A DNA stretch of 64,000 bases from Tubulanus polymorphus. Its lineage: Eukaryota; Animalia; Nemertea. The notes beneath the pieces were generated by a model, which worked only from the letters and a program-made list of their open reading frames with translations, did not search any database and was not told the origin of the DNA. The stretch is taken from the NCBI RefSeq assembly GCF_964204645.1, contig NC_134034.1:4500914-4564913 (forward strand), read 5' to 3'. The first letter of the stretch is position 1. The number at the start of each line of letters is the position of its first letter. Of this stretch, positions 34,368 through 57,606 are shown piece after piece. Position numbers and translations under genes: made by a program.

Positions 34368-35667
34368 TAAAGGTTCAACTGTCATTGTACTTAGCATAGC
34401 TTAGATTGGATTTCATATTTCTTCATTTTCTACAAGGAGTCTCAAAGGGTCGTCCCCAGGTAGAGGTCAAAACTTGGTTTACTTTCTCAACTTGCTGGAG
34501 ACTACCATCTGCATTCATGCCACGATTTGTCTGGCCTATGAGAGTCGAACAACATTTTCCCATACACAGGCTTGGCTTTAGTGTAGATAAGGCTAGACAC
34601 TGCACAATGTGGATTAACTGGAACTCGAAACACTCAAAATAAAACGAGCCATAAAGAAAGATCCAATAATTTAACGTTTATCTAACTATATTAATTTACA
34701 GCTTAAAATATACAATATACATTCTGCAAAATTTCACAAAAGATATCAGTTCTACATTTTATCAGAATCAAGCGTTAAAGCCACATATTCGCTTAGCTTG
34801 GGTTTGAATTCTGGTTCCATAGCCTCGTATTCTTTTACAATCCCCTTGGTTACCTCGGAATATCGCTTAACTTTAAAAGACTAAAAATTGAGTCCCAGGA
34901 AAACCAAGTAAAGTGGGGTATACTGTACGTCCGCTGTTGGCTTATTTTTCTCTGGTTGAATCAGATTATTACTGAAATAGCGTTTGAATAGCCATTTTAT
35001 TTTTATTTTATCTTTATTGTGTCGTTTAGCTATCCTGCTGCAAATTTCACAGTTGAAGTTCACTGGTGGCATCTGATTGCATGAAAATATAATCACTGCT
35101 ACAAGAAGTCTTTTCTCAGTATCTGTATGTCCATCTAAGCAAATCAACTTGGTCTATGATTCCTCCTTTTATAGTCTGAAAATAAGAATTGATACATTTT
35201 TCTAAGAGATGGTATGTCAAAGAAACTTGATAATTATCTCACCACAGCAACTGAATGATTCGCAACTGTTAAATTTATTCCATGCGCACGATAAATCAAA
35301 AAGAAATTCAGTGAGATCCCTTTTGTCCAAAAGCCGCATCATCATTATAACTAGCTATCAAATATAACTTACCTCCAGTCTCAAACAGAGTATACCACAG
35401 TTGCCCATAATCGTACGTGACCTGTTGACAAAAGAAAAGTGGCTATCATAATCATATTTTATATACATTTGAAATGTCCAAATAAGATTTGTTCGTCTTG
35501 AAGAATTAAACCACATTCTTGGAATATTCAACATAGTGTGATGGGTCTGTGAAATGAAAACAGAACCAAACCCAACATGTGGGATACGTTCCTACACCCT
35601 TGCCCCATTTATTACCCAACGTATTAGGTCCGAATCAAATATGAAATAGGTTATCAAGTTCATTGCT

Positions 35668-36158
35668 AGTAATAGGGGTAATGGGCTTTCAGGCCAAAGG
35701 TCGAAGGGTCGAGCTCATTAAAAAACAAAACATTAAAAGTAATTTAAAACTATAATATATTTTCATAACCGTGTGCATTTTATATTATAACTAAATATTC
35801 ATTCTAAGATATCAATAATTTAAATTTTAAAAGCATATTGTATTAAATCAATTGGTCGCTCCACTTCGCTACCGCTCCGCTCCGCGACCAATTGATTTAT
35901 TTACAATACACAAATTCATATAATCAAATATATTTTAATAATAATTATTATTCTATTATTCAACTGAAATGCACACGGTTATGAAAATATATTATAGTTT
36001 TAAATTACTTTTAATATTTGTTTTTAATGAACTCGACCATTCAACCTTTAACCTGAAAGCCTATTACCCCTATTACTCTTAAAATAATCATACATGAATA
36101 CATGTATTCATTATACATGAATAACATTTAAATTGACAGATTATTCAATATAAAAGTA
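35668..36158 (+). repeat. Polinton left TIR; 35668-36077 is itself a foldback
   Basis: Near-identical to the reverse complement of 57138-57606. An internal inverted copy of the terminus ends at 36077. Confidence 0.95.
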
Positions 36159-36304
36159 TATATTTACAACATTATTTCAATATTTATATTTGTATGAGTT
36201 AGATTTTTAAACATTAAAAGTGTTAGTAAAGTGTGATTGAAATAATACATGATATAAATCATTGAACTTCTAAAATCAATTTTAATAAAAAATTTAGTAT
36301 TAAA

Positions 36305-39300
36305 ATGGAAGCAAATAAGTACTACTGCCCAACATGTAATATCAATATAGATAAATCCCAAAAAGCAAGACACAATAAAACTAAAACACATTTAGAGAAT
36401 AAATTGAAACTAGAATATAAAGATGATATATTAGAAACTAAATTAGATGAATTAAAGAATGAAAAAGAAACATACAAATGTGATACATGTAATCAATCAT
36501 TCAGTGATAAAAGATATTATAAAGAACATTTAAAATCTAAAAGTCATATTAGAAATAAGAATAATGATATTTTAGGTGAAGATTATTTTTATAAAGATAA
36601 TAATAAGAAACAGAAGACAATTAAAAGCATAAAAAATAAATTAAACATGGATGGATGTAAGAAATTATATTAATTCATTGGATAATAAAAAAAGATATAG
36701 AGATAACCGAAGCATTTAAAAGTGATATTGGCCCAGCAGCTATCGAGTTTAAATTTCATAAAGGTAAAACATTAGAAGAAAATAAAAAACATTTAGAAAA
36801 TATGAAAGAAATAATAAAAATAATAACTGATGTTGAATATCCTAAAATTAGTATATCAGTTAAAGTAAAGTTTATAAAATCTGAAGATAAACCAATATAC
36901 GATATAAATTCTCATTCACAACATATTATATATAAACAACACATAGATGATAAATTAGATAAATGTTATAATGAAGTAAAAACTAAAATAGAAGAGAAAT
37001 ATTTTGAAGGATCTGGTTTAATATTTGATGAAATAATATTTATGACTTTACATGTTTATAACACAAAATATAATAAGTTAACTAAATCAAAACCAATCGA
37101 TGAAAATAATGTATCATATTATAAAGAACCAGATATTGAAGCATCGAGCTATATTAAACTACCATTTAAAACTAATGCTGTAATAAATGTACAAAATGAA
37201 GATGATAAATGTTTTCTATGGACAATTATAAGTTGTTTACACCCAGTTGAAGATTATAATAAACATACTTATAGATTAACAAATTATAAACAATTTGAAA
37301 ATAATTATAAGATAGATAAGTATCCTGTTCTAATTAAAAACATCCCAAAAATAGAAAGAGATAATAATATAAAGATAAATGTATTTGATTTAATCAAATT
37401 GCCAAATACAAAAGGTAACAACATAAAACATTATACATTAGAACCTTTATATCTATCAAAAGATTATGATTCAAAAGATGTTATAGATATACTATATTAT
37501 GAGAATCATTATATGTGGATTAAACAAATCGATTTATTTTTTAAATCAGAAAGTGATCACCATAAAATATATCTTTGTAGAAAATGTTTACATAGATTCA
37601 GTAATGAAAGTACATTATTAAATCATAAACAATTATGTGAAAATCATGATTATTGTAAATTAGTTTTACCAAATGAAAAGGATAACATATTAGAATTCAA
37701 AAAATATGATTACAAAAATAAAGTTCCATTTGTTATATGTGGAGATTTTGAATCATTAAATAAAGAATTAACTGATCAAGATAGAAAAGAAATATATTAT
37801 AAAAGAAAGAAATTAAATTCTAATGAAAATGATTTTTCAGATGAACCACCAATAACAAATACTATTAAAAAGATTCATCAATCAGCTGCAGCTTTCGGGT
37901 TATATATAAAATCTGATTATCCAGAACTAATTGAAAGTGAATATTATGATTATAGAAATGAAAATGTTATCAATCATTTTTGTGACTTATTAATTGAATA
38001 TGAAATAAGATTTAGTAAATTATTGAATACAAATATAGAAATTATAATGACAGAAGAAGATAAAGAAGAATTTGCATTTGCAGATAAATGTTATTATTGT
38101 GAAAAGATATTTAATTATAAAGATAAAAAAGTAAGAGACCATGATCATTTGAATGGAAAGTTTAGAGGCGCTGCGCATGAGAATTGTAATTTACAAGCTA
38201 AGAAAATTAATTTTGTACCAGTTATATTTCATAATCTATCAGGATATGATGCACATTTATTCATCAAACAGTTATGCCATAAAATAGAAGAAATTAATAA
38301 TGAAATAGAAAGATTAAATTCAAATAGATCAAAAGATAAAATACCAACTTATAAATTTAGAATGTTAGCTAAAACATCTGAGAATTATATATCATTCCAA
38401 TTTGGGTGTTTAAGATTTATAGATTCTTATAGATTTTTAAATAGTTCATTATATAACTTATCAAAATCATTAGTTGATGAATTAAAATTATTAAAACAAC
38501 ATTACCCAAATAATGATGATTTTCAATTAATGAGATATAAAGGAGCAATTCCATATCCATTTTATAAATCACAATGATTTCAATATAACTGAATTATTGA
38601 AAGAACAATTCTATGATGAATTAAAAAATGAATATGTTAAAGATGAAGTATATAATAGAACATTGAATATTTGGAATCATTTCAAAATAGAAAATCATGG
38701 ACAATTAGTAGATTTATATCTAAAATCAGATGTATTATTATTAACCGATATATTCGAAAGGTTTAGAGATGTAAACCTAAATATTTTAACATTGATCCTT
38801 GTCATTGTTATTCTAGTCCAGGTTTAACATAGGATTGTGGATTAAAATTTACAGATATAAAAATGGATTTGTTAACAAATATAGATCAATTATTATTATT
38901 TGAAAAATCTATAAGAGGAGGAGTTTCAGGTGTATTAGGGGATAGATATTTCAATGTAAATGATAACCCTGGATATAAGTTATTATATATAGATGCAAAT
39001 AATTTGTATGGTTGGGCAATGATGGAACCACTACCTTATGGAGTATTTGAAATAAGTGAAGTTTTACAGAATGAGAATAATGATAAATTTGATTGGAAGA
39101 AAAGAATTCTAGATATTGCAGATGATTCAGATACTGGTTACTTCTTTGTTGTAGATTTAGAATATCCTGATGATGAAAAATTTAAATCTAGAAATCTAGC
39201 TCACTGTCCCGAACATAAAACTCTAACTCATGAAGAATTATCAAATTACCAAAAAAGAATTAAACCTGAAAATCATATCCATACAGAAAAGTTAATGGTA

Positions 39301-40328
39301 ACTCAAGAAGATAAATATAATTATGAAGTAAATTATAGAATGTTAAAGTTTTATCTAAAACAAGGAATGATCCTAAAAAAAGTACATAGATATATTTCAT
39401 TTAGTCAATCTAAGTGGTTAGAAAAATATATAGATTTTAACACCAAACAGAGAACTGAAGCTAAAACTGATTTCGAGAAAGATTTCTTCAAGTTAATGAA
39501 TAATGCATTCTATGGTAAGACTTGTGAAAATATTACAAATAGAAATGATATTGAGTTAGTTAGTAATGGTAAAAGAATTAGACATTTGCAAACATATCCT
39601 AAGTTCATTGGTAACAGAATATTTGATGAAAATTTAGCTGCAGTTAAAATGAGAAGAACATCAATGAAATTTAATAAACCAATCTATGTTGGCGCTTCAG
39701 TTTTAGAATTATCAAAATTACTAATGTATGAATTCTATTATAATGTATTACAACCACTTTTTGGAGAAAAACATATAGAAATATTATATTTTGATACCGA
39801 TTCTTACATATTTAAGATAAAAACTGATAACATAACAGATGATTTAAAAACATTAAAACATCATTTTGATTTCAGTAACTATCCTAAAAATCATTGTTTA
39901 GCAATGATAATAAAAAAGTTCCCGGTAAATTCAATGATGAATTGGGTGGTGCAGAAATGATAGAGTTCATAGGTATTAGATCTAAAATGTATTCATATAA
40001 AACTAAAGAACGTGAAGCTAAAAAGTTAAAAGGAATGACCAAAAGTGTAGTAGAAAAGAATATTCATTTCAAAGATTACATCAATTGTATATTCAATGAA
40101 GAAGTTAGAAAACATAAGATGAGATGTTTAAGATCTGAAGATCATGAAATGTTTATTGAAGAAAAGATTATTGAAAAGATTAGTCTAAACCCATTTGATG
40201 ATAAAAGATATATTTTAGATGATGGAATTCATACAGTTGCTTATGGTTGCAATTTAGATGAATACTTAAAATTTAAAAGAGAAGAAACAAAAGAGAACGA
40301 GATAATGAAAAGAATTCTAACGTGTTAA
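36305..40328 (+). pseudogene. Protein-primed family B DNA polymerase (group-2 type): N-terminal zinc fingers, OTU-like protease region, inserted endonuclease-VII/HNH domain; several frameshifts
   Basis: Motifs DDKCFLW...ENHY, GDFES, VRDHDHLNGKFRGAAHENCN, FHNLSGYDAH, YIDANNLYGWAM, KLMNNAFYGKT, YFDTDS and DDKRY. Confidence 0.95.
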
Positions 40329-40357
40329 TCAAATTTTAATAAAAATATGTATTATAA

Positions 40358-40711
40358 ATGGAGAGTAAACAAACACACAGTGAGAACAACAAATCATTTC
40401 TAGATAGAATAAAAGATACTACAAATGTAAAATCTGTAGATTATAAATTCAAAAAGTGAACAGAATTAACAATTCATAAGAAATATCTAATTACAAATAT
40501 CGATACAGTTACTAATAACTATGGAGATAAATTAGTTATACACTTAGAATATGAAGGATTAAAAGGAAATACATATAAATTCAGAACATATTTACCAGAT
40601 AGATTTCATAGATTATCAAGTGAAGATTTAGAAGAATTATGTTCTGGAGATTTCTATTTCGTATACAAAGGTAAGAATGAAAAAGGTCACCATGAAATAG
40701 ATTTCGAATAA
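40358..40711 (+). pseudogene. Small Polinton protein with one internal stop; possibly OB-fold/ssDNA-binding
   Basis: Not in the ORF track. Manual translation MESKQ...KK*TEL...YLITNIDTVTNNYGDKLVIHL...TYLPDRF...FVYKG. Function is a guess. Confidence 0.55.
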
Positions 40712-40725
40712 AATATGTAAAATAA

Positions 40726-41483
40726 ATGGTGGAATTAAAAGAATACAGAATATTTGTTGATTCAAGAAAACTTACAAATTATAAATCTCATAATTTACTA
40801 GTACAATTAGATAGAGAATTCAAGAATTGTGTAGATTTAAAATTAGTTAATATAAGTTTATGTAATTCTTTTTACAATATATCGAATAAAACTATTGAAG
40901 ATAATACTTAATTCATATTAGAAATGTAAATAAATGGTTTAATCTAATTTTAAAACCAGGATTATATAATTTAGAAACATTAGCTCAAGAAATTAATAGA
41001 AGAGCACGGTTGAAAATTAGAAGAGAAGATAAATTTTTAATTAGATTTATAAAAAGTTATAAAAAGTACAAATAAATTAAAATAAAGTTACATGATGAAA
41101 GTCAACATGCATTTATGGTAAAAAAACCTAAAGCTAAACTGTTAGGAATTGTACCAGATACTGTTACAGGAAACGTAGATGGTAATTCAAATATAATACC
41201 TTACACACACTTTTATATTTATTGCAATTTAATCGAGCCTACAAAAACATTCGAAGCAACTAAAGATGCAATTTGTAATTCTAGTATATTAAATATTTTA
41301 CCATCAAAAAATGTTAAACAATTTGGAACTCAAATAAATTATAATTTAACAGAATGTGATTTCAAACCTTGTATTCCACATTTCAATAATTTTAAATTAG
41401 AAATAAGAAATCATAATGCTTATTTAATTGATTTGAATAACTTTCCAGTGATATATGAATTAGTTATGAGATGTAAAGAGTAA
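40726..41483 (+). pseudogene. Minor capsid (penton) protein, frameshifted
   Basis: IFVDSR...LVNISLCNSFYNIS, LKPGLYN, FYIYCNLI...ILNILP and FKLEIRNHN..LIDLNNFPVIYEL match the single jelly-roll penton pattern. Confidence 0.75.
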
Positions 41484-41499
41484 TTTTTTCACTATATAA

Positions 41500-41856
41500 A
41501 TGAATATAACTGTTGGGCCGAGTATATGTTTTGGGTTTGATTTTAAACATGAGATAGAAATGAAATTTAACATTAATGATGTAATTACACATATCAAAAA
41601 TATTGCATTTTCTAATGAAACAACATTTGAGTATGAAACAACAATAGATAAAGAAACTTTAAATGTAGAAAAGATTACTAATTTAATTAGAGAATCTTTA
41701 AGATTTTATGAATTAGATGAAGATTTTATCATCGATGATATTAAAAAAATAATCATTGAAATATATACAAATGAAACTAGTAATGAAATAAATGTTGAAT
41801 TAATCGTAAATAAGTTAACTAAATATTTTGATGATAGTAATTTTTTTGATAAATAA
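41500..41856 (+). CDS. Polinton hypothetical acidic protein, 118 aa
   Basis: Intact ORF preceded by the conserved T-run/TAAATG motif. Confidence 0.6.
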   Translation: MNITVGPSICFGFDFKHEIEMKFNINDVITHIKNIAFSNETTFEYETTIDKETLNVEKITNLIRESLRFYELDEDFIIDDIKKIIIEIYTNETSNEINVELIVNKLTKYFDDSNFFDK

Positions 41857-42086
41857 ATGAGTGATAATAAGTGGATAATAACTGGATAATATAATGGCGC
41901 ATTACTATCAGTTGGAAGTTTTGGTTATTCAATGGTATTAAAAAAAGTATTTAAAATGGGAAGTGTTAATGTTGATAGATTTGATATAAATGATATTTTA
42001 AAATTAACGTTAGCAGTTACTTTATCTAATTAAACTATTGATTACTTAGAAAAACAAAAATATATTCCTCCTATATAAATGCGTAA
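41857..42086 (+). pseudogene. Small Polinton membrane protein with internal stops
   Basis: TAAATG start. Reads MSDNKWIITG*YNGALLSVGSFGYSMVLKKVF...ILKLTLAVTLSN*TIDYLEKQKYIP. Confidence 0.55.
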
Positions 42087-43068
42087 TTATTTTACTAAAT
42101 AAATGGCTTCTGCAGTTATAACTATTATAGGATCGGCAATTGTTAACGCTTTAGCATTTACTGGTGGTGGTTATTTATTTAAGCATATTGATAAAAATGG
42201 ATCATAAACAGAACAAAAAAGACATAACTTAGCATTAGAGAAATACAATAAAGCAGCGGAAGAATATAGAGAAAAAAGACAAAACTATATGGATTATATT
42301 AACAAGGAATTATATGATCAGAAGATTTCACATAGAGATTTTCAATCAGTTGATGATGCAATGAGTTTATATAACGCAGTAACCAATAAAGAAAAATTAC
42401 ATCTATAAAAACCTAAATTATCAGATTATTATACCCCAAGTAAAGAACAACAGAAATATGAAAATATAGCTGCAAAGCAGCGATGACGGGTTTTCTGTAA
42501 AGCCATTCAGAATGATGGGAATTATAGTAAATTGAAATATCGATACATAGAATAAAATGCATTGACAGATTCGAACCTAATATGCAACCACTGTGTAAAC
42601 GTCAAATATGATTCAGCTTTGAAACCGAACATACGTGGACGTACAATCACAAATATTAATATATTTGACCAGGCACTTATTTTGGCATTCAAACATCATG
42701 ATACTGTATTATCACCATCCTTAAAAATGGATCTGTCCTATTAAGAACTCATCTTAAGCACCTGCTGATAGATTGAGTGAATTCACAGATAAGAACGTAT
42801 TATGATTTAGAATAGATTAGATTTAAGAAGTTAATGTTTTTATTGAAATATTTGAATAAATACATATATTGTAGTGTAGATTCAATCAATAAATTATGAA
42901 TTGATTTGGTCTGGGTTTCCGGCTGATGTTGATTTTGGCTTTTATGGATTACAAAATCTACAGTGATAAACAATTGATACCTGCAACATGTGTGTAAATC
43001 AAACCTATTCCACTAGTTGCGTGTGTTTCCTAATAAACGGGAGAGTCACTCTTGATCTGAGTTATTAG

Positions 43069-45620
43069 AACTGGGGGTCCAGGGACACCATGCCCACTTG
43101 GGAAGTGGTTCCAAATGCTCAACAATCTAACAATTCAGGTATCAAAGGTATAACACATCCCTTTTCAAAGAATACCCATCACAAATTGCAATGAGAAATG
43201 GCAAACTCAGAATTCGGGCCAAAATTGACATTTTTGGGCACTAAAAAAGGTCATAGGACGGCCATCTTGAGTCCGTATCCCAATTTTATGCTGCAAAGTT
43301 ATGCTGATGGGCCCAGGGGCATTCACATATATCCGAAAGATCAAGGTAATTGATCAAAGCATCTTCAAAATTTCCCTCAAAAAGTTCAAAAATATGGAAG
43401 ACCTCAGACGACATACGAGATATGAGATATAACATACGAGATATGAGATGCAACATACGAGATACGACATATGACATACGAGATACGACTTATTTACAGT
43501 ACGGGTGTCCGTCCGCTAGCGCCACCGCAGTGTATATTTTTCAACATCTACTCGGCGTATACTACGACACGTGCGCAGGCAGTGGCGTATACATTAACTA
43601 TGAATATCAATACGCGAAAAACGTTTCATTTGAAACTAAAAATATTTAAAGATATTCGATCAACCACTCCCGGGGACCGGCTTCTCGCTGTGACGTCAGT
43701 GGGCCACTCTTAGTGTGAGACACCGATGGTCCGGTGATTCGAGTTGGCTCACGGGGCTACAGCCCCTAAATCCACCAAAAACGCGTCAAATTCCATTTTT
43801 GAGTGTACAAAAATCCCTCAAAAAGAGTTAGCCACGGCCCTTCAAATTGGTGGTCATTAAGAATTGCGCCTAGTCAAGGGTTTAAACTCCGCGTTCGATC
43901 GAGGGTTTTCGATGAAGAATGAAAGATGTATGTATATTACGAATGCCGATGACCAAAGAGTCTTAAAAAAAGTCCGACACACGCGGAATCTGTTTAGAGT
44001 ACTATGATTTCAACGAATGAATTGAAACATGGACATGAATTAAAAATACTAAAGATATCATAAATTTATTGAATGAATTATTCATTAAATCATTATCAGA
44101 ATGGAGTTCCATTGTATCACTCTCAGCTCCTGGCCCTAGTCCAGCTGATTCGTTTATCACGACCATTTTTGCGACGGGTGCAAACGCACCATACGAGCAA
44201 CGTTCCGGTGTTCCGCTAATTCCCTGTCTAAAGAAATGTTACTTGATATTTCCATGGATCTCTTATCTTTACAAATGTAAGAGCTGTTGTGTTTTGCTGA
44301 AGACTTATTTATGTGGTTCCTGTACTTTTGTCAATAAACAGTTTTAAAACTGGCCATGACAATTGATAAGAATGATCTTAAATTGGATTCTCCGATTATG
44401 AAAGTTATTCAGATTCAGCCATTGGCCCTTTTCATGAAAGATGTCAGAAAAGAAAGATAGCCAAAAAGCACTCAGAATACACAAGTACCTAAATTGAACA
44501 AATTTTCAGGGGAGGACCCCAGACTATGGCTTCAGAAAGACAGTACCGCATACTGCCCTGGCGGTTAGCGAAAACTGGCCAGTCTCGACTCTCAATGGCT
44601 GGTCTAGTGGACTCACCAGTCTGCCCCAGTAGCTCGATAGGGATGGAATTTAGCTGGGGATTTCAAACCTTGAGAGAGAGCACGGGAGTTCTTAATCTGG
44701 ATACCAGGGCGATGTACGGGTTCCCAGGTTGTTTGGGATTCAAGAACTCAGGCAGGGGTGTCAAACAGCGGAGGAGGGGTACAAGGGGGCCGGGATTTCC
44801 GGCTGCGGAATTTTTTTAGAATTTTGATTTCTGATGCAGAAAAGCAGGCGGTTACGGCGGGCGGTGAACAGTAGTTATTTTTTCTGCAGGCATTGAGTAA
44901 CCGGAACCCCGGCTCCTGAACACCAGGCCGTTTTAAGACCAAAGGAAGACAAGAAATAGCATAATATTATGAACTTGAACAGTTTGATATCTTTTTAGTT
45001 TTGTGATTTGAAAAACTTTTCGTCGCCCGCGGGAGAAGAACGGCCGGCGGCGCGCCTAGTCCAGGGTGTTCACAGTATGGCCTAATATCGTTGTGTCCGG
45101 TCCAGGTGTCCATTATCCAAAAGAAATCTATTTCTGGTTTGAATAAAATGTTGACTATGTTGGTTTTCATATAATTGACGATGACTGTACGCGTCACCAT
45201 GTTAAACGATTTATATGCAGTAAATATTGAAAAAACATACACTGCGGTGGCGCCAGCGGACGGACACCCGTACTGTAAATAAGTCGTATCTCGTATGTCA
45301 TTATGTCGTATCTCGTATGTTGCATCTCATATCTCGTATGTTATATCTCATATCTTGTATGTCGTCTGAGGTCTTCCATACAAAAATGTGTAAAAAGTGT
45401 TGATTTTGGCGAACAACAATGGCTGCCAGTCGGCCATCTTGATTCTGACAGGGCCAGTTTTTGAGCTGAAGATGTGTCTAGGGTAGATACACGTGAAACC
45501 CAAATATCAAGACATTACATTGAAGCGTCTTCAAAACTTCCTGAAATAACTGATTTCCGTCTACGGACGGACGACGGACGAAAAGTGAACGCAATAGCTA
45601 AAGTCCCAAGTGGGCTAAAA
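43069..45620 (-). mobile_element. Second, nested pearl-like HINE
   Basis: SubTIRs GCCCACTTGGGA (43092-43103) / TCCCAAGTGGGC (45604-45615). (ACGG)n microsatellite at ~45563-45580. Terminal hairpin at 43073-43089. GGCCATCTTG core repeats. Confidence 0.75.
43393..45380. mobile_element. Non-autonomous IS3EU-like TIR transposon
   Basis: ~150-bp TIRs starting TATGGAAGACCTCAGACG with internal ACATACGAGATA repeats. 6-bp TSD CAAAAA (43387-43392, 45381-45386). TAY..RTA termini with a 6-bp TSD fit IS3EU. Confidence 0.78.
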
Positions 45621-46893
45621 ATAATGTTCATTTAGTCATAGAAATTCATTGCCTTTTTGGAGTTTCTGTAATAATATTTGTTCTGCCCCAATTTTTATTA
45701 CTGTATGAACCAATGATATGCTTTGTAAATATGATGTAATAAAATAAATTTGAATTAAATTTGAACATGAGAATCAAGCATAACTTGTGTTTTTTCAACT
45801 TGTCTTACTTGTCTTTTGTTAACAGTTCCAGAGTTTCAATTACAATCAAATCCAAATTGGCTAAAAAGTGCATAGGACTAATTGAAATGAACGGTTAGTT
45901 ACTGCAAACCTATTCCAGTGTTATGTCGATCGTGTTGAATCACTTTCCTTGAGTTGAAAGAATCAGATCTTCTATGGTACAACATCAGTCATCTTGGTGT
46001 TGACTGTCCTTGACCATCTAACTTTATGCGTTTGACATTGGAATTTAGCATCATACCCATTTGAACTGCAAAATATTCATACAACATGAAACCCAACAGT
46101 ACATGTATACAGTATTAATCAAACTTTCACCGATGTTGGATATTTGAATGAACATTAGGTTTATTTCAGTACTCTAAAGCAGGAAATAATAAGCCCAATC
46201 AATAGGCCCTATTCCCATTGGATCAATTATATAATGCGTACAGCTGTACCGTACACTTATCAGTCAAGAATGGAGAAGTCGGTATACCAAACCTACGAAC
46301 AGCAAAATGTACAGGCCTACAATGATTTCTGGTAATACAAGCCGTGACCACATGAACGTTTTGGTTTGACTATTAATGTCAGCAGGTCAGAGAAGGCCTG
46401 GCCAAACTTAATCACAAGGCTCAAATCAATTAGCCTTTCTGCGTGTGAATATTTCACTGTATTGTTTTAAAAATAGGCCTATCGAGTGAATTAGTACATA
46501 GACTGAATTAGACTTTAGGCTAGTCCTGACCAAATCCTATCCATATTATAATGGCACCAGTTATAGTAACATCACTGTAGCGCCGACGAGAGGGAAAAAG
46601 TTGTGTTTGTAGTACATAGGCATGGTAGGCTTGTCGTACTCACTTAATACTTAAAACGCTGTTGTTACCTGTACGTGACTGTACGGTGATTTCTACAGGT
46701 TAGCCATATGTGAGTACGTTGACGCTCAGACTTGCAATATTGGGATTCGAAACCAAACGAAAAAAAATCCAGTAGTAGTCCAGTGATTTACCCACTGTAA
46801 CGTAACTGGTGGGTGGATGAAATTTGATTTACAAATAGCCTAGCCTCACCTAACCCAAACTCTATTCTTTTACGCATGCGCGTTTGCAGATTA

Positions 46894-47232
46894 TAGGAAC
46901 TCACGTACAGCGTTTTTAGGGAACTCACGTACGGTTAACCTGTGGATATCACCGTACAGTCACGTACGCGTTACAATTTCGTACTTAAAATGGTATTGGC
47001 TACTAGGAACTCACGTACGGCGTAAGTAGGGAACTCACGTATGGTTAACCTGTGGATATCACCGTACAGTCACGTACGCGTTACAGTTTCGTACATAAAA
47101 TGGTATTGGCTACTAGGAACTCACGTATGGCATTATAGACTTAGTAGGGACCTCCGGTACGCGGTTAACCTGTGGAGATCACCGTACAGTCACGTGCGGT
47201 TAACAACTACGTACTTAAAATGGCATTGGCTT
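46894..47232 (+). repeat. 3 x 110-bp tandem repeat, with an inverted partial copy at ~46670-46718
   Basis: TAGGAACTCACGTA... starts at 46894, 47004 and 47114. Confidence 0.88.
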
Positions 47233-48135
47233 CTATATAATAGGCCTATAGACAAATAAATACCGGTAGGCTTTCTTATAATCTTAGCTTCCACAATTCA
47301 CAACCGAACCAACTGACCAACCAGTATATTTAGTCCCAGTACGCACCAACCGGCACAGGCCTAACACTGTTTGTCAACTGTGTGTACCGTTGTAGGCTAT
47401 CGATAATCACCTGATACTTTTCTGTCGTTTGTTTTCTCTCTGAGACGAACACGACCGTAATTCTAGTAGCCTTCCGCGACTCAACGACCTTGATTCAAAC
47501 TTGATCAATTCAAAGTCTGTTTATTGACGCTTTTGGTTACATGAACTGATCAGCAATATACTTAAATAAAACAACCGGAATAACAAGAAATCAAAAACAT
47601 TAACGAGGTAACAAACAAATGTCCGTAAACCTGTCAGACACGCGAACGCCGGACTCGTAAACTCTTGGACTCGGACCCGCTGAGCAATAAATTCATAAAA
47701 TTGACTTTGAAATTGATTGTGGAGAAGAGAGGGAATTATTCGATAGCTCTTCCTCGAAAAGAAGAGAGAAATATCGGTATGAAAACACAACATGGCTACT
47801 AATTGAATGGAGCCAAATTTCCGATGTTTACGGCTCGACAGTGCCTTTATAACGTAGATTTATCAAAATTCCCATGCAGTATCTGGAGATTGAAGTGAGC
47901 TGAAGGATATCATACGGATTGTATCGGCGACAGCGGTAAGGTAAGGAAGCCTTTACACTTTTAACAAAAACTATGTGAAAAAGGGAAAAAAAAAAAAAAT
48001 AATAATCACGCGAATTTCAATAGGGTTTTCTGTGAAGAAACAGAAAACCCTAATAATATGGATTTTAGGTGGAACTGTTATTGTTATATTTGTAGAGTAT
48101 AGGTTTACTAATTAGTAATTTTTTTTGCTAAATAA

Positions 48136-48555
48136 ATGGATGATAATATTGATATTATTCCTCATGATATAAATAAAACTAAATTAAAAACATATTTAGA
48201 AAAACAAATATTAGAATTTGAAAGTGACATAAAGATTAAAAAGAAAAAATATTTAAAAAGTAAAATTATATATTATTTGATTATAAGTGGTTCGGTTACA
48301 ATTAGTTCTGTAATAACATTTCTAGCAATATTCAGTCCATTAACACCTTTAGCTATATCAATTGGTGTATTAGGATTAAGTTCAAGTGTATTAACTGGTA
48401 TAAGTTCAAAATTAAATATAAAAAGTAATAAACAAAAAAATTAAAACTAATATAAAAGAAATTAATAAATTAAAGAATACACTAGATTATATAATAAGTT
48501 TAAATGGTCATATAACAGTTAAAGAACAAGATAAATTATTAAAAGAATTAATAAA
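48136..48555 (+). pseudogene. Polinton two-TM membrane protein, frameshifted
   Basis: Hydrophobic IIYYLIISGSVTISSVITFLAIF and LAISIGVLGLSSSVLTGIS flanked by coiled coils. Confidence 0.6.
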
Positions 48556-48578
48556 TTATTAATTTTTTTATTATATAA

Positions 48579-49901
48579 ATGGTAGATAGTTTTCCAAAAG
48601 CTTTCCAATATAATAAATCAATTAAATATAATATTCCAGCAATAGATTTTAATAAAGATATTTCATATAGAAATGAAGTTTTAAATTCATTAATTGATTT
48701 ATATATTTATGTTACTGAAAGTAATAATTTTCATGTAAAGATGGAAAATATATTTCATGTGAATACAATTAATTTCAAAAATTTAAATGAGGCAAAACAA
48801 TGGTTATTAAAATCTAATATGAAGTATTGGCAGAACCAATTAAATTTTGCTGTTTATTGCGCAACAACAGGATGTGGAATTAGTTGGAATGATCATTTAA
48901 ATAAACCAAGTTTACCACTGATGTTATCACTTTTTAGATTTCATACTTATTTTCAAATAAAATTAATATTAGATGAATTAGAATGTCCTTTACCAGGTTC
49001 TTTACCAGACTTATTTTAAAGAATTGAATAATAATATTAATTTTTCTAAGTTTTATAAAATATGTAATGAATTAAATATTAATTCAAATAAAGATTTTAG
49101 ATCAAAAATTGGAACAATGGGTGGATTAGGAATATTGTATACTAAACAATTTGGAAAAATAATAACAAATTCAGATATAAGAACACTAAACTGGAATGAA
49201 TTACCAAAATATTATAATAATATACAACAACGAAACAATAATGGTTGGGTTAATTTCATTTTAGAAAATAGTGAAGGTTTTACTAAAGCTGGAATACAAA
49301 TAATAAATCAATCTATTAGAACTTATTTGATATGGATTTTAGGTGCACAAGTTGAAACAAGATCCCCAATAATTGGAAATGATAACACTTCATTCGATGC
49401 GCAGAAACAATTCAAAGTATTATTTTTTATTTCAATTCATAATGATAAAAATAGATCGATTCCAGAAAACATTGTAAGATATCAAAATTATTTAGATAAA
49501 TCACATATTAGATTAAATTATTGTATAGGCCCTAATCTATTAATTATTTCTAATGATTTAGTATTAAAGATGGGAAATATAATTGGTTATAATAATCTAA
49601 TTAAAACTGCAACAATAAATAATTCATTTGGATTGAATGATATAGATAAAAAGATTAAAAAATAATGGAAGGTGAAAAAAATAAAAAACACATTCAATCA
49701 ACTGAAACTAAAACTAATAATATTAAATTAAATAATGATTCTAAAATGAAAGATTACAATACATCAGAAAATATAAAAACTGATAATATTCAACATGAAA
49801 TAATTAAACTAAATGATGATAATAAATCCCATGAAAATACTAAATTAGCTTTAACTTGTATAGGAATTGTAATCGGAGGAATATTATATTTTAAATTTTA
49901 A
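48579..49901 (+). pseudogene. Conserved Polinton protein of unknown function with C-terminal TM anchor, in three pieces
   Basis: WQNQLNFAVYCATTGCGIS...DHL, GFTKAGI...INQSIRTY...ILGAQ and C-terminal LALTCIGIVIGGILYF. Confidence 0.65.
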
Positions 49902-49917
49902 TTTTTTTATTATGTAA

Positions 49918-50907
49918 ATGGCAGAAGGTGGAGAAGATATTCCATTGGATCCTTTAGATGAACCCGGTATAAGTGATGAACAACAACCTGATTTTGATGA
50001 AACAAGTTTTAGTAATGATAATAAATCAGAATATAATACTAATTTAGGTGAAGATGATGATTATTACCATTTAAAAATCCATTTAAAAATCCAAATCCTA
50101 CTGACGTTGATCCAGAAACATCGAGAAGAGATATTCAACAAATTGATAATGATTCAAGTCAATTACAATTAACATTTGAAAAAAAAATTGATAGATTAAG
50201 AGATTCAGAAGAAGAGATGAATAGTACTGGAATAAATCGAATACTATCTTTACTAGAAAAAGGATTACTTGATTTAACTGATGAAGAATTAAAAGAATTT
50301 CCCGAACCAGCATGTAGAGAAATTAAAGGTATTTAAGAATCATCTGATGATATTGCTAATATTAAGATGAGATTTTATAAAGAACCATCTTAGAAAAAGA
50401 ATTAGCTAATGCAGATAAAGAATTAAAACAATTAGAATTAAATAGAGATCATCAAGTAGTTTATGAAGCTGATTTTGAAAGCAGAAATTTAGCTTTAGTA
50501 AAAAAAATAGATGATTTAGAATATAACATAGAATTACAAAAAAAGAAGAAAGAGATACATTATTAAAATCATATGATCTTAATCATATTAAAAAATTAAA
50601 AGTTATTTTTAAAGATTTGTTGATAAAACCAAATTTTAAAATATCATTAAAAGATAGAATAAAATTATTATTTAAACTAGAAGGTATATAATTCTTTCAA
50701 TTCTAACAGCTGTAACTATGGTATTTACAACAATAGGTTTAGCAATATCAAATGCTTTGAAATCTACTCCTACTCCCAATAAACCAGATAAACCCCCGAA
50801 TGATAATAATTCTATACAAGATAAAGTTAAGGACATATTATTTTATTTTTAATTACAGTTGTAAGTGCTATTATTTTTGGGCTAGTAAACATGATAAAAA
50901 ATGAATA
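49918..50907 (+). pseudogene. Polinton acidic/coiled-coil protein with C-terminal hydrophobic segment, fragmented
   Basis: TAAATG start MAEGGEDIPL. Later frames read SLKDRIKLLFKLEG and ILSILTAVTMVFTTIGLAISNAL. Confidence 0.55.
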
Positions 50908-50928
50908 ATTAATTTTTTTGTTAAATAA

Positions 50929-52174
50929 ATGAGTGGGAGTTATATCAATCCTTCTAAGAATAATAGAATATCTAATGCTATTAAAGCAGAAAGATCACAT
51001 CATATAATTACTCATAACCCTTCTAATATTAATCCCGATGAAACTTTATATGTTAGAATTCCTAGATTAACACAAAATACTTTTTATGTTCCAAATAGTA
51101 TTTATTTATCAGCCGATATAAAAGTAATCGGTAATAATAATAATTATGTTGTTGATAATGTTGGAAGATATTCGATTAAAAAGTTAACTATAAAGATTGG
51201 TCCAGAAACAGTTTTCTCATTAGATGATTATAATTTATTTATGCATTATAAAGATTTATGGTTAACTAAAGAAAATAGAAATAATATGATATTTCAAGGC
51301 ATCCAATCAGAAAACCAAAATAAATTAAGATGAGAAGCACATAATGCAATATTAACTAATTCTATAGATAAATTGATAAAAAGTATATATGGAAGCAAAT
51401 ATAAAATTCCATTAGACTTTGAATTGATAAATAACAATGCACCTTTATATAAATACGCAATTCAAGAAGACGTTATATTCGAAATAACATTTGCTCCTGT
51501 AAATGAAATTGTAATATCTAGCGTTAATAAAGATATGAGTAAAATTATCGAATATATGTTTAGAATATGACACAGTAACTGATGAAAATATTTCAAGTAT
51601 AATTCAAACTAAATACAATCAAGGATTTTCATTATAATATGATTATATTGATAAATTTAAAACCGTAACTATTAATGCAAATGATGAAATTATTAATGAG
51701 AATATTAACTTCCCAAGAAGATCTATTAAAGGCATACTAATATTTTTTACCATTGCAACATATACTAATGGCGCAATAAATGTTGATAATTATTATAATC
51801 CTGAAATAACAAAAGTAGAAATAACTATCGAAGGAATAGCAAATAAAATATTTTGTCAAGGAATGAAAATGATTGATCAGTGGCCAGAAATTAGAAAACA
51901 TTTTATGAATGAAAAAGTAAAATCATCTGAAAATTGTAACATTAATCAAATTGATCATTATACCGGTAATAAATATGCATTATGGTTAGATTTTAGAACA
52001 ACAGAGGATAATTCATTACATGGATCTGGAAAAAAATTACAAAACACTAAAGATGGAATACAATTATTCATGACAAAGAATAAAGGAATCAAAAATTTTA
52101 AAATGCACATTTATGTTATATCTGACGCACAATTAAATATTGTAAATTCGCAATTAGATAGTGTTATGTATTAA
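50929..52174 (+). pseudogene. Major capsid protein (double jelly-roll), broken by a stop and frameshift
   Basis: ~410 codons over ORFs 50929-51333, 51373-51570 and 51863-52174. Beta-rich: NPSNINPDETLYVRIP, YKIPLDFEL, PRRSIKGILIFF, YALWLDFRT, HIYVISDAQLNI. Confidence 0.75.
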
Positions 52175-52206
52175 AATTTTAACTTTAATAAAAATATATA
52201 TAATAA

Positions 52207-52995
52207 ATGGAAGGTGGTAAAGTATATAAACATATTCCATATATCGATACACATGAAAATAATGATGGTTTATATTATGTAATACCTTGTAATATAGCTT
52301 CGATATTTGATCCTATTTTCAAAATTTATGAAACTAAACTAATAGAAATCGATAATAATAAAAGTGAAGTTGTTGATAATTTGAGTAATGTAATTGATAA
52401 TAATGTAATACATTCTACATCTAATAATGTAATACCTTCTACATCTAATAATGTAATACCTTCTACATCTAATAATGTAATACCTACTACATCTAATAAT
52501 GTAATACCTTCTACATCTAATAATGAAATAATATTAAATGTTAGTGAAAATAGAAATTATTGTGGATATTGTAAAGGTGAATATTCAAACGTTCCATCAA
52601 ATTGGAATAAACATATGAATACAAATTCACATATTACTAATGTAATATATCGTGTTGGTATAAGAGAATTTATAGAACACCCATTTAGATATGTTACAAA
52701 GTTTGTTTCAAATCAAAAAGTAAATGGTGAAAAAATATATGAAGATTTATTATTAGCAACACCTAATAAAGATGAATTAGATATAACCGATGCTAATGAA
52801 ATATTAGGATCAAACACTGTAAATGAAATATTAGGAGCAAACACTAATAAAGATTCTATAAAACATAAAGTAGAAAATAATGATAAATTTGATTGGATGA
52901 ATAAGCATAACAATGAAACAACTATTGACGATGCGGTAAAAAAGGTGCAAAATAAGTATAAAATAATAGAGAATTTGAAGAAGAAAATTCGGTAG
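52207..52995 (+). CDS. Polinton hypothetical protein with 5 x NNVIPSTS repeats and a C2H2-like zinc finger
   Basis: 24-bp tandem repeat at 52398-52530. Motif YCGYCKGEY...WNKHMNTNSH. Confidence 0.65.
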   Translation: MEGGKVYKHIPYIDTHENNDGLYYVIPCNIASIFDPIFKIYETKLIEIDNNKSEVVDNLSNVIDNNVIHSTSNNVIPSTSNNVIPSTSNNVIPTTSNNVIPSTSNNEIILNVSENRNYCGYCKGEYSNVPSNWNKHMNTNSHITNVIYRVGIREFIEHPFRYVTKFVSNQKVNGEKIYEDLLLATPNKDELDITDANEILGSNTVNEILGANTNKDSIKHKVENNDKFDWMNKHNNETTIDDAVKKVQNKYKIIENLKKKIR

Positions 52996-53070
52996 AGAAT
53001 TTGAATAAATTGTTAGGGTCTGATGATGAAAGTGATTAAGATATTAATTATATTTAACACAAATAATAAT

Positions 53071-53375
53071 ATTGGTTGAAAATTGTATAAAATAATAGTA
53101 AATAAAAAAGGGGGTTTTAAGTATTTAAGGTATTTAAGGTATCTAATACATATCTAATACAATCTAATACATAAAATATCTTATTTTATAAACTGATATT
53201 CATATGGAAATTGAAACCTCATTAATAATAAATAACCTTTATTATTTTCAAACTTATTCATATATTAGTTGAAAAAATAAAAATAAATTGGTTGAAAATT
53301 GTATAAATAATATTTATTTTTAAAAAGGGGGTTTTAAGTATTTAAGGTATCCAATAGGGTATCTAATAGGGTATA
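53071..53375 (+). repeat. Two direct repeats in a non-coding Polinton spacer
   Basis: ATTGGTTGAAAATTGTATAAA...AAAAAGGGGGTTTTAAGTATTTAAGGTAT at ~53071 and ~53287. Confidence 0.8.
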
Positions 53376-53384
53376 TTTTAAACA

Positions 53385-53531
53385 TATTTCAATATTTATA
53401 TTTGTATGAGTTAGATTTTTAAACATTAAAAGTGTTAGTAAAGTTTTATTGAAATAATTCATATATATTCATGAATAACATATAAATGAATAACTTCTAA
53501 AATCAATTTAGTAAAAAAATATATATAATAA
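53385..53531 (+). promoter_or_regulatory. Duplicate of the pPolB upstream region (36173-36304)
   Basis: Shared TATTTCAATATTTATATTTGTATGAGTTAGATTTTTAAACATTAAAAGTGTTAGTAAAGT and AACTTCTAAAATCAATTT. Confidence 0.8.
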
Positions 53532-54185
53532 ATGGAACCAGAACAACCACAAATTATCAATTTTACAAATAACGCTGGTGCTATAAACATATACTACAAA
53601 AAGTGTTCTAAGTGTGAATTAGATAAATTAGCTTTAACAGAATTTAGTAAGCGTAAGATTAGCAAAGATTGTTTTCAATATTGCTGTAAAACTTGTACTA
53701 AACTATATACCAAACAATATCGAGAAGATAATAGAGAAGCTTATAATGATTATATGACAGAATATATGAGAGAAAGATATCAAACAGATCTTAATTTTAG
53801 ATTGAAACAATGCTTAAGATCTAGATTAACACAATTATTCAACAAAGAAACACATTCAGAAACACTATCTAATTTATTGGGTTGTTCAGATGAATTTTTC
53901 ATTTCATGGATAATATATCAATTCGATGATAAAATGAATATAGATAATTATGGTGAATACTTTCATATTGATCATGTGTTACCAATATCTAAATTTAACA
54001 TGAATGATGAATACAATAAAAAACTTATTTGGGGTTGGAAAAATTTAAGGCCTTTAGAAAAGAAGGAAAACATAATTAAATCTAATAAACTAGATTTACA
54101 GTTATATTTAGATCAACTGGATAAAGCAAAGACATTTGTTGAATTATGGAATTCAACACATAATGAAAAATACGTTGAATGTTAA
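53532..54185 (+). CDS. HNH endonuclease of the giant-virus/phage type with N-terminal CxxC zinc ribbon; intact
   Basis: KKCSKC...CKTC, DLNFRL..CLRSRL, LLGCS and QFDDKMNIDNYGEYFHIDHVLP...NLRPL.KKENIIKSNK. Confidence 0.85.
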   Translation: MEPEQPQIINFTNNAGAINIYYKKCSKCELDKLALTEFSKRKISKDCFQYCCKTCTKLYTKQYREDNREAYNDYMTEYMRERYQTDLNFRLKQCLRSRLTQLFNKETHSETLSNLLGCSDEFFISWIIYQFDDKMNIDNYGEYFHIDHVLPISKFNMNDEYNKKLIWGWKNLRPLEKKENIIKSNKLDLQLYLDQLDKAKTFVELWNSTHNEKYVEC

Positions 54186-55064
54186 ACGCTTAGAAAACCG
54201 GTTACTCTCGATCTATGTCAAACCGCCTATATGTAATTGTATTAGGTTGTTTAAAAAAGCATCTGTCGCACGTTATATTCAGTTGAATAGGGTGTACCTC
54301 ATTTGAATATTGATCGAATGTTCTATTTCAGTTGAAAAGGATTAATCAATAACATTACAAAGGAACATCTGTTGCACCAGACAGTGTTTAGCTAGTGAAT
54401 AACTGGCAGTTATAAACGCGCAGCGCATAAGCATAGGAACGTATAGGATATTCTCTCTATAAACACAATTTTAGGAGTTTACAGTTATAAATTTAAGTAC
54501 TGTTTTTGTTGTTATAAAGGCGTTGGGAAACGTTAACTCTTTCGCTTAAACATGTAAAACTTATCCTGGTAAGATGCGCCACAAATGGTCATGTTTAAGT
54601 GTTGTAATTAATATTTTACAACTACAACTTCAAGTTAGTTTTATTCTACGTTAGATATTTATCTTTTAGATAACAAAATGAAGGCCATTGAATCAAGAAA
54701 GTGAAGATAGATGGATGTGGAATCAGAAATAATGGATATTTCAACTCATGAGACTGTAGCAGTTTAGCCATATGTATAGGCTTTCAATGCATTACGTTTG
54801 CCGGAATTTCAATTGCGTCATTAATCTGTTGTTAATGACACACAGTGACAGATGTTGTATTATACTTTATTGATTCCTGCATTCCACGCATAACTTACCG
54901 CTCGGCTGCCGAGCGGCTTGGAATGTGGAAATCGATAATGATTATAGAATAAAATATATGTGTTTATGAAATAGAATTTCCACCAGTCGTTTCTTTGAAT
55001 TTATTTTCAGTTTTAGGATTTATTATCGAGAATCCGAAATGACTTATCTGGACAGTTAACAGAT

Positions 55065-55389
55065 TAAATAGGCAAGAGAATTAGGTAAAAGATCTTCAGA
55101 ATTAAAAAAAGCTAAGAAAAAGAAATTAACTGATATAAATGAATCACAGACTTTATCTGATATTGATTCAAGTAATAATCCATCTGATTCTTCTAATGCT
55201 GGAAGTAATTATAAATTATATATTACAATAGGATTAGTAACAGTTATTATATTATCCGGTGTAATATATAAATCAAAATTCAAATCTGATGATAAATATG
55301 ATTCCAATGATAATAAACCTATCATACCAGAAAATAAGTCAAATCATAAAAGCATTGAAACTAAATCTAAATTATTATTAATGGATTAA
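55065..55389 (+). pseudogene. 3' part of a small single-TM Polinton protein; 5' end lost
   Basis: ARELGKRSSELKK...LYITIGLVTVIILSGVIYK...LLMD*. Confidence 0.5.
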
Positions 55390-55395
55390 AATAAG

Positions 55396-56504
55396 ATGAA
55401 AAAAGAACAATATTTAATAGTTATATAATAACCCAGAAAGTGAAGTATCATATTCTAACGTTACAGAATTATGGGGTAAAATTAAATCTGATAAGGAAAA
55501 TGGCGCCATACGGCACCCACATGGTGGTATAAAATATAGTGAATTGAAATCATGGTTACAAAATCAACCAACATATCAAATCCACAAGAAAATGGATAAA
55601 ACTTATTTAACAAGAAAAGTTATGGTTTCATATATCGATCAACAATGTCAAGCAGATTTAAATGACATGAAGAACTTAGAAGAATACAACAAAGGATATT
55701 TCTGGATACTGAATGTTATAGATATATTCAGTAGATACGCATGGTCAATTCCAATCAAAAATAAAACTGGAATAGAAGTAACAAATGCTTTTAAATCTAT
55801 ATTTAAAGAAGCTATTCCAGATAAGATACAATTTGATGAAGGTAAGGAATTCTATAACAAACATTTTAAAAAACTATTATCTGATAACGATGTAGATTAT
55901 TTTTCAACACACTCAGATAAAAAAGCATATATTATAGAAAGATTTAATAAAACATTGAAAACTAGAATGTGGAAATATTTTACTGCTAATGAAACATAAA
56001 TATATCGATGTATTAGATGATTTAGTGAAAGGTTTTAATAATTCTAAACATAGTTCTATAAATATGAAACCTATACAAGCTAGAAAAGAAGATAATTCGG
56101 AAATAGTTTGGAATAATTTATATGGCGCATTTGTTACACATGATTTTGGAGAACCTAAATTTAAAATAGGACAACACGTAAGAATATCTAAATATAGAAA
56201 AACATTTTATAAAGGTTATACCCCTAATTTTACAAAAGAAATATTCAAGATTAAAAAGATAATATTAACTAAACCTTTTGTTTATAAACTAGAAGATCTA
56301 AAAGATGAAGAAATATTAGGTTATTTCTATGAACAAGAATTATCACTTGTACCAAATCCAGACGAAATAGAATACAAAATAGAAAAAGTATTGAAAACAA
56401 AAACTCTTAAAGGAAAAAAGTATTCTTTGGTGAAATATAAAGGATATCATGATAAATTTAATGAATGGATTTTATCTAGTAAAATTAAAAGAATAAATGA
56501 ATAA
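55396..56504 (+). pseudogene. Retroviral-like (RVE) integrase with C-terminal chromodomain, frameshifted
   Basis: KSWLQNQPTYQIHK, QADLNDM, IDIFSRYAW, QFDEGKEF, IERFNKTLK and YKIEKVL...LVKYKGY..KFNEWI. Confidence 0.93.
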
Positions 56505-57107
56505 AGATTTATTTATATTTGAACCGGATAATATGTTAGTTACTAGAGTAACCAATTGTGGTAAAACACATTTCATATTAGATTTGTTAGAAACTATTTA
56601 TAAGAATCATTTTGATAATATAATATTATTCTGTCCTACTTATGAAATGAATAAAACATATAATAGAGATTTAGTTAAGATAAAAAAGTTTATTATATTC
56701 AATCCTAAAACAGTAAAAGAAAATTTAGATAATTGTATAAAATAGCAATTGATACTTATAAAGGATCAAATACATTATTCATTATAGATGATTGCGCAAA
56801 TTTACATGATTCAAAAGTTAGAGAAAGTGAGTTATGTTATCTAGCTTTCTCTGGGAGACATTTTGGGATAACAACATGGGTTTTAAATCAAAAATATAAT
56901 TCAATTGTTAAAGACTTTAGGGAGAATATAAGATTTCTAGTTTTATTTTATAACAAAGATAAAAAATCTATGCAACAATGATTGGAAGAAAATCAAATTA
57001 TACCCACTGAATTACATGATGAATATATGAATAAATTAAAGAATAATAAAGGTTCAAAATTATTACTGAGATTACAATTTCCATATGAATATAAATTTAT
57101 TAAATAA
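56497..57107 (+). pseudogene. A32/FtsK-family DNA packaging ATPase, with frameshift and stop
   Basis: Walker A remnant VT(R)VTNCGKT, Walker B FIIDD, and SGRH...LNQKY...REN. Confidence 0.9.
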
Positions 57108-57137
57108 AATTTATATATCTATTCTATAAGAGCTTAC

Positions 57138-57606
57138 ACTTTTATATTGAATAATGTGTCAATTTAAATGTTATTCATGTATATGATTATTTTAAGAGTA
57201 ATAGGGGTAATAGGCTTTCAGGTTAAAGGTTGAATGGTCGAGTTCATAAAAAACAAATATTAGAAGTAATTTAAAACTATAATATATTTTCATAACCGAG
57301 TGCATTTCAGTTGAATAATAGAATAATTATTATAATTAAAATATATTTGATTATATGAATTTGTGTATTGTAAATAAATCAATTGGTCGCGGAGCGGAGC
57401 GGTAGCGAAGTGAAGCGACCAATTGATTTAATACAATATGCTTTTAAAATTTAAATTATTGATATCTTAGAATAAATATTTAGTTATAATATAAAATGCA
57501 CACGGTTATGAAAATATATTATAGTTTTAAATTACTTTTAATGTTTTGTTTTTTAATGAGCTCGACCCTTCGACCTTTGGCCTGAAAGCCCATTACCCCT
57601 ATTACT
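57138..57606 (-). repeat. Polinton right TIR; 57197-57606 is a foldback
   Basis: Inverted copy of the left TIR. Confidence 0.95.

Follow-up and report, generated by a model that had tools for sequence, protein, structure and literature searches.

The DNA analysed here, referred to below as the window, is a stretch of 64,000 nucleotides from the nemertean Tubulanus polymorphus (contig NC_134034.1, positions 4,500,914 to 4,564,913), and it contains a decayed Polinton/Maverick element, most of whose recognisable genes start at the hexamer TAAATG. Two kinds of signal are found upstream of these starts, an A-rich core (A-core, class A) and a T-tract (class B). This two-class start grammar is real, conserved and lineage-specific, and its layout is like that of poxvirus post-replicative promoters. 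The element is a bona fide Polinton with the hallmarks of Mavericks/Polintons, namely long terminal inverted repeats (TIRs), a 6-bp target-site duplication (TSD), a protein-primed DNA polymerase B (pPolB), an rve integrase and an A32 packaging ATPase. Its features are given below in window coordinates; L-numbers denote loci used for comparison.

35662..35667, again 57607-57612: 6-bp TSD, ATTGCT
35668..57606, plus strand: decayed Polinton/Maverick element with ends AGT...ACT and two non-element insertions, recognised by TIRs, TSD and GC content
35668..36160: left TIR, about 490 bp, inverted-repeat matches of 98% and 96%
36281..36307, plus strand: class A site of pPolB, initiator variant TAAAATG; the L004 and L007 orthologues have the A-core and TAAATG
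36305..40328, plus strand: pPolB, broken into several open reading frames (ORFs)
40335..40360, plus strand: class A site of the SSB-like gene
40358..40711, plus strand: OB-fold SSB-like gene, broken in this copy
40702..41483, plus strand: class-A-like site and putative minor capsid gene, broken, start 40726
41481..41502, plus strand: class B site, start 41500, the TAA being the stop codon of the upstream gene
41838..41859, plus strand: class B site, start 41857, T-tract inside the upstream coding sequence
42084..42105, plus strand: class B site of a conserved membrane-protein gene, start 42103
42462..48051: nested non-element insertion, absent from many copies
48116..48138, plus strand: class B site, start 48136
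48560..48581, plus strand: class B site, start 48579, of a broken gene homologous to L081:11548 (513 aa)
49899..49920, plus strand: class B site, start 49918
50910..50931, plus strand: class B site of the major capsid gene, start 50929
50929..52174, plus strand: major capsid protein gene, broken, weak Capsid_N match
52184..52995, plus strand: class A site and 262-aa zinc-finger/repeat gene, start 52207; atlas matches below 0.9, a lead only
53507..54185, plus strand: class A site and HNH-like gene, start 53532
55396..56504, plus strand: rve integrase with chromodomain, broken, start TAAGATG, rve E 1e-8
56494..56980, plus strand: A32-type packaging ATPase, broken, start 56497, its TAAATG lying within the integrase 3' end
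57135..57606: right TIR, pairing with the left repeat

The GC content is 21-26% inside the element against 30-45% in the flanks, and all element genes are closely packed on the plus strand, most of them broken by stops or frameshifts. Along the element, read depth in about 12% of one DNA run lies mostly at 130-430 for each mate direction, and most of these reads are 90-99% alike, which indicates a multi-copy family. The larger insertion is skipped by a joint from 42461 to 48052 in 698 reads of run X6; it contains a 1,994-bp element with tandem-repeat inverted ends at about 43386-45381. Each TIR (35720-36080 in the left one) has inverted repeats in its interior, with a hairpin-like palindrome rich in GC at the centre. 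No introns were evident to the first-pass annotation, in agreement with the single pPolB ORFs of 1,241-1,365 aa in the related loci L004-L007.

The pPolB gene has 1512 homologues, one of which is a named adintovirus PolB (E 3e-49). The SSB-like gene matches intact orthologues at 63-66%, and the model of an orthologue (pLDDT 84.7) resembles a phage SSB in Foldseek (E 7.8e-5); a single-sequence fold of the protein reached a pLDDT of only 41.7, matches in the PDB stayed at E>=0.018, and a PDB profile search also gave nothing significant. For the major capsid protein, in Polintons a double jelly-roll protein, Capsid_N scored below the cut-off and no PDB match was found by sequence, while 29 homologues of 362-420 aa exist, and other Polinton loci carry homologues. 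We take the gene at 40726 to be a minor capsid gene from its position and N-terminal pattern; it has no Pfam match and no similarity to the candidate in L081. The HNH-like gene takes its label from its motif and from the first-pass annotation; it gave no Pfam HNH match, and its homologues offered no clue to a helper. The ORF at 49117 belongs to the interior of the broken gene that starts at 48579, and Pox_A32 matched the packaging ATPase in two pieces (E 0.0036 and 5e-5). No adenain-type protease was matched by Pfam in the window frames scanned, although a decayed copy may have lost the gene. Neither RNA polymerase nor TBP, VLTF or other transcription-factor families were found by Pfam among 56 window frames, so transcription would need an outside machine; the missing polymerase is true of Polintons generally and is not diagnostic for a virophage.

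TAAATG is present at 40358, 40726, 41500, 41857, 42103, 48136, 48579, 49918, 50929, 52207, 53532 and 56497. These are 12 of 14 starts, or 12 of 15 with the doubtful start 49665 (TAATG) included; the remaining two of the 14 are those of pPolB (TAAAATG) and the integrase (TAAGATG). The coordinates given by the first-pass annotation were all confirmed. Enrichment over background was borne out in two tests. Within element DNA, 12/15 candidate starts carry the motif vs 23/375 other plus-strand ATGs (Fisher p=1.5e-11), and a Markov-1 null for the first ATG after a stop predicts TAAATG in 7.3% of cases (binomial p=8e-12). An in-frame TAA stands immediately before 12 starts. Position -3 is T at 12/15 window starts, at 7/7 starts of L002 and at 92% of 12 starts in L004-L007, while it is A in other Polintons such as L220 (16/16) and L082 (9/9). 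Because the T at -3 reverses the preference of other Polintons, it is probably not read as a translation context; an ordinary Kozak context was considered and is ruled out by this base.

The spacing of the upstream signals is fixed. Class B T-runs start at -16 (five sites) or -17 (one site), the tract at 42103 being interrupted, and at 6/6 uninterrupted sites among the seven of this class the tract ends 6-7 nt before TAAAT. All five plus-strand runs of T>=7 are located 16-17 nt before class B starts, as are 6/10 runs of T>=6 at class B positions; a T6 run precedes none of the 23 internal TAAATG sequences and 3/375 other ATGs. The class A core occurs five times, four of them at named starts, the HNH site having one mismatch, and none of the 23 internal TAAATG sequences has either core. 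At five window sites, and also in L004/L007, a bipartite AT-rich core plus TAAA initiator is found at conserved spacing, a likeness in layout to the poxvirus intermediate promoter. Pairwise identity over -25..-4 is 15-19/22 within class A, 13-19 within class B and 8-14 between classes, giving two clusters. Both classes proposed by the first-pass annotation therefore stand as sequence clusters, but the minor capsid candidate 40726 must be added to class A, and the ATPase and integrase join neither. Its seven class B genes count as consecutive only when the 5.6-kb insertion, missing from many copies, is disregarded and 49665 is taken not to be a gene.

The upstream regions of pPolB and the HNH-like gene are a 78-nt, 96% duplication, so these two class A sites are not independent. 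Around the HNH-like gene, subterminal sequence is duplicated (36173-36250 with 53385-53462, and 53178-53266 with 57022-57110), and 219 reads connect the left TIR straight to the HNH upstream region. The N-terminus MESKQT is common to the window SSB-like gene and the HNH-like gene of L004. From these sequences, genes appear to have been shuffled at class A sites.

In metagenome loci whose pPolB is 72-85% identical, TAAATG is retained despite changed gene order, with counts of 3/3 starts in L004, 3/3 in L007, 2/3 in L005, 3/5 in L006 and 0/1 in L008, where the ORF opens at an internal ATG. As in the window, the L006 integrase orthologue lacks TAAATG. The A-core before the pPolB, SSB-like and HNH-like genes is kept in L004 and partly in L007, and L006:5149, a gene that in L081/L175/L014 is part of the structural block, combines TAAATG with a T8 tract. 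No relatives of the structural genes turned up when the major capsid was searched against viral and genome contigs, and integrase searches returned only L002 itself, so class B rests on the window element and this one L006 gene. L002 is a distant 9-kb Polinton of 38% GC in which TAAATG is found at 7/7 starts on both strands (0.3 expected); six of the seven belong to genes arranged head to head, where there is no stop upstream that they could overlap. It falls outside the window clade in a FastTree of 69 pPolB sequences, a placement on a long branch with weak local support in a tree that does not contain the window copy. The L002 integrase carries an N-terminal extension read as protease-like, a part that gave no Pfam match.

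The start-site survey covered 47 pPolB-related loci with at least five ORFs, and TAAATG was enriched at p<0.01 only in L002 and L006. AT-matched controls had the motif at 0/9 (L216), 2/9 (L217), 1/11 (L221) and 1/15 (L222) starts. Since relatives keep TAAATG and equally AT-rich Polintons do not, the fused initiator is specific to certain lineages and does not simply follow from base composition; chance in AT-rich DNA was a candidate explanation and is ruled out by the window enrichment together with these controls. TAAA within 9 nt of the ATG is enriched in 8/47 loci including L002 (p<=0.011), and the seven others have A at -3. This second group (L081, L082, L215, L220, L074, L183 and L050) has TAAA at <=9 nt from most starts (15/16, 9/10 and 8/9, for example) and, near -25, a block rich in A. 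One pPolB clade contains six of these seven loci, and L050 is not in the tree. Judged by sequence, it may represent a wider bipartite Polinton promoter.

L014, which carries capsid-module homologues of the window element, encodes at 5447-6085 a Pox_VLTF3-like late transcription factor (E 1.3e-16); its own starts are of a TATATA type, and neither the window nor the other loci have a homologue of this factor. Such a gene can link the capsid lineage to nucleocytovirus transcription, yet it would offer a route to autonomy too. A Pfam scan of 52 of the 73 listed ORFs from eight relative loci found no TBP. Splice-donor avoidance was not discriminating, with an observed/expected ratio (O/E) near 1 for the clade as for 87 further loci. 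Each clade pPolB ORF contains 2-8 copies of TTTTTNT (O/E 0.66, compared with 0.47 for the others), and pPolB therefore does not fit the pox early type cleanly. Across the pPolB ORFs of 87 loci, TTTTTNT is found 69 times vs 145 predicted by synonymous shuffles, with T5 at 0.65. Forty of the Polinton polymerase loci (L175-L214) lie inside prokaryotic metagenome-assembled genome records, probably as eukaryotic or viral contamination. In the flank at 1-30000 no host gene was recognised; its ORFs are presumably LINE-like, En/Spm-like, hAT-like and Harbinger-like, labels that do not come from a family search. Together with the relatives of the element, these flanking transposons point to an animal host.

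The interpretation that we favour, at a probability of roughly 45%, is that the upstream signals and TAAATG are per-gene promoters, which a co-infecting nucleocytovirus would read with its RNA polymerase in the manner of poxvirus post-replicative transcription. It is drawn from the combination of TAAAT with a T-tract 5-7 bp upstream, which is the vaccinia late layout, the position of class B at the head of capsid and membrane genes, the lack of a recognisable polymerase, TBP or VLTF gene, and the known promoter mimicry of virophages. Active ancestors of the element were likely helper-dependent, virophage-like viruses. Transcription would start inside the AAA of TAAAT, and slippage would add a 5' poly(A) leader, so that the T at -3, an unfavourable base, would be missing from the mRNA. 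Genes with the A-core (those for the polymerase, the SSB-like and HNH-like proteins and the putative minor capsid) would fire before the T-tract class (major capsid and membrane proteins), like intermediate and then late genes in vaccinia. The many genomic copies would be proviruses made by the integrase, the window copy being a dead one. The first-pass annotation had named a pox-like helper; this specific claim was not upheld because non-pox giant viruses share TAAA(A)TG starts, and the candidate helper is a nucleocytovirus that need not be a poxvirus. Nothing was found in favour of the integrated antiviral defence that the first-pass annotation also raised, and this copy is decayed. We consider it unlikely that the helper is an undiscovered pox-type cytoplasmic virus of marine invertebrates, with high-copy animal Polintons as its endogenous virophages that copied its intermediate and late promoters for a two-wave programme, the fused TAAATG having evolved in two or more lineages of Polintons, whose gene-start motifs could then be used to predict helper viruses.

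Several observations weigh against transcription by a helper. Class A sites are partly duplicates, through the 78-nt repeat and a joint from 36092 to 53471. The proposed equation of class B with a membrane/structural block holds for the major capsid and membrane genes, but the putative minor capsid gene falls into class A, no core of either kind precedes the ATPase and integrase, and the L005 pPolB is preceded by a T6 tract; L002, in turn, has the initiator but no fixed T-tract class. Copy-to-copy constraint was not significant (1/32 core positions variable vs 33/279, p=0.11; p=0.18 with a wider core), so that conservation of core positions among copies is suggestive only. Poly(A)-signal O/E was 0.98 in the clade vs 1.01 in 87 others and thus not discriminating. 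A search of metagenomes for pox-like viruses had been suggested by the first-pass annotation, and pattern scans of viral contigs, a collection whose poxvirus content is unchecked, yielded no helper with both classes. The class B scan gave 91 scattered single matches, 14 of them at ORF starts, and the class A scan gave at least 121 loci; among the matches listed, two class A patterns co-occurred in only one 17.6-kb record (L295/L296). This record has 20% GC, an ATPase-like ORF and TAAATG at 2/4 ORFs. In 5/5 giant-virus bins the class B pattern was not enriched over a reversed control, and capsid searches did not classify the bins. TA2-4TG starts are enriched in the giant-virus loci L085, L090, L127 and L161, even minus the match, and the RPB2 of the bin holding L161 scored 507 bits to Pol II vs 178 to vaccinia rpo132; such initiators are therefore not pox-specific. 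Finally, the access of a cytoplasmic polymerase to a nuclear provirus is left unexplained.

The main alternative, possible but in our judgement rather less likely than transcription by a helper, is that host RNA polymerase II (Pol II) with a host or element factor reads two compact lineage-specific promoters with very short leaders, the pox likeness being convergence in a 22%-GC genome. The many integrated copies suggest that the element works in nuclei, the second group of Polintons (TAAA near the ATG, A at -3) fits scanning, and several small genes without a family match could hide a factor. Yet none of the transcription-factor families was found in the window frames, T at -3 would be a poor context if it remained in the mRNA, and the A-core, which lies about -24..-13 relative to the ATG, is too near for TATA spacing, for which the rule is -31/-30. 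The 17-24 AATAAA per clade pPolB ORF are also undepleted, though controls behave alike.

A different account, which we regard as improbable, holds that the motifs are not promoters but punctuate the spaces between genes, combining the stop of one gene, a T-tract terminator or AATAAA signal and the start of the following gene, and that duplication and gene conversion spread them. It draws on the class B TAA being the stop codon of the upstream gene at 3/7 sites, TTTTTNT within 5/7 class B tracts, AATAAA adjoining the ATG at 7/15 starts, the duplicated pPolB/HNH upstream regions and the shuffled gene order among relatives. However, the spacing is tied to the downstream ATG and not to the upstream stop, the 41857 tract lies in coding sequence, and the first genes after the TIR, like the head-to-head genes of L002, have TAAATG with nothing to terminate; L002 is moreover outside the window pPolB clade and has 38% GC. 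T at -3 and head-to-head pairs argue against both a Kozak context and a stop/start overlap. It is very improbable that the signals act on translation, as U- or A-rich enhancers with an in-frame stop before AUG on longer or polycistronic RNAs. Packed genes on one strand and the in-frame TAA before 12 starts would suit that explanation, whereas divergent L002 genes cannot share an RNA, the T at -3 is opposite to the preference of other Polintons, and two classes largely sorted by module are not expected from it.

In the portions of the literature consulted, promoter mimicry is documented only in protist virophages. The element offers two 25-nt promoter candidates. Start-site grammar differs by Polinton lineage (fused TAAATG, TAAA plus a short spacer, or an ordinary -3 purine) and could separate autonomous from helper-dependent Polintons. 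No report of TAAAT-type promoters in Polintons was found in the literature, subscription papers and bioRxiv supplements being outside the scope.

The yeast linear cytoplasmic elements pGKL1/2, which are not known to have a capsid or integrase, provide one comparison. Like the window element they are AT-rich, and they use a TAAAN initiator with slippage-derived 5' poly(A) leaders; they differ in encoding their own RNA polymerase and using an early-type UCS (PMC6211774, as excerpted). Animal Mavericks/adintoviruses share TIRs, a 6-bp TSD, pPolB, an rve-chromo integrase, an A32 ATPase and candidate capsid genes (PMC8502044), and excerpts of that paper mention neither promoter nor helper; animal Mavericks/Polintons differ in that 45/47 pPolB-related loci show no TAAATG enrichment at p<0.01. 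Polinton-like viruses (PLVs) are present in entomopoxvirus occlusion bodies (Barth et al. 2024, PMC11296320) and are likewise Polinton-like elements tied to a poxvirus. They differ in size (about 12 kb), in divergent capsids and a protease, and in that no rve integrase is reported in the parts of that article available; its main text there has no mention of promoter, motif, TAAAT or upstream, nor its supplement of promoter. Mavirus and endogenous mavirus-like elements (EMALEs) share the late promoter of CroV (PMC8547959, as excerpted). They are similarly endogenous, integrase-bearing, pPolB-type elements whose gene starts have a motif in common, for which a giant virus is the proposed reader, but they live in protists, use a single TCTA motif and have a known helper, while the window element has a likely animal host, two classes and TAAAT. 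According to excerpts of the poxvirus literature, the vaccinia late promoter has a T-containing core 5-7 bp before TAAAT(G/A), late genes encode chiefly membrane and morphogenesis proteins, and DNA binding and packaging fall to intermediate genes (PMC5294985); in chordopoxviruses TAAAT, which extends into the ATG, is the template of a poly(A) leader (PMC4542343), transcription starting in TAAAT and slippage adding the leader (PMC4542343, PMC6211774). Class B is like these late promoters, with TAAAT overlapping the ATG and a T-rich core 5-7 bp upstream, and class A may, judged by architecture, be like vaccinia intermediate promoters in its bipartite AT-rich core and TAAA initiator. Unlike those of vaccinia, the window motifs sit in a 15-kb integrating Polinton without an RNA polymerase.

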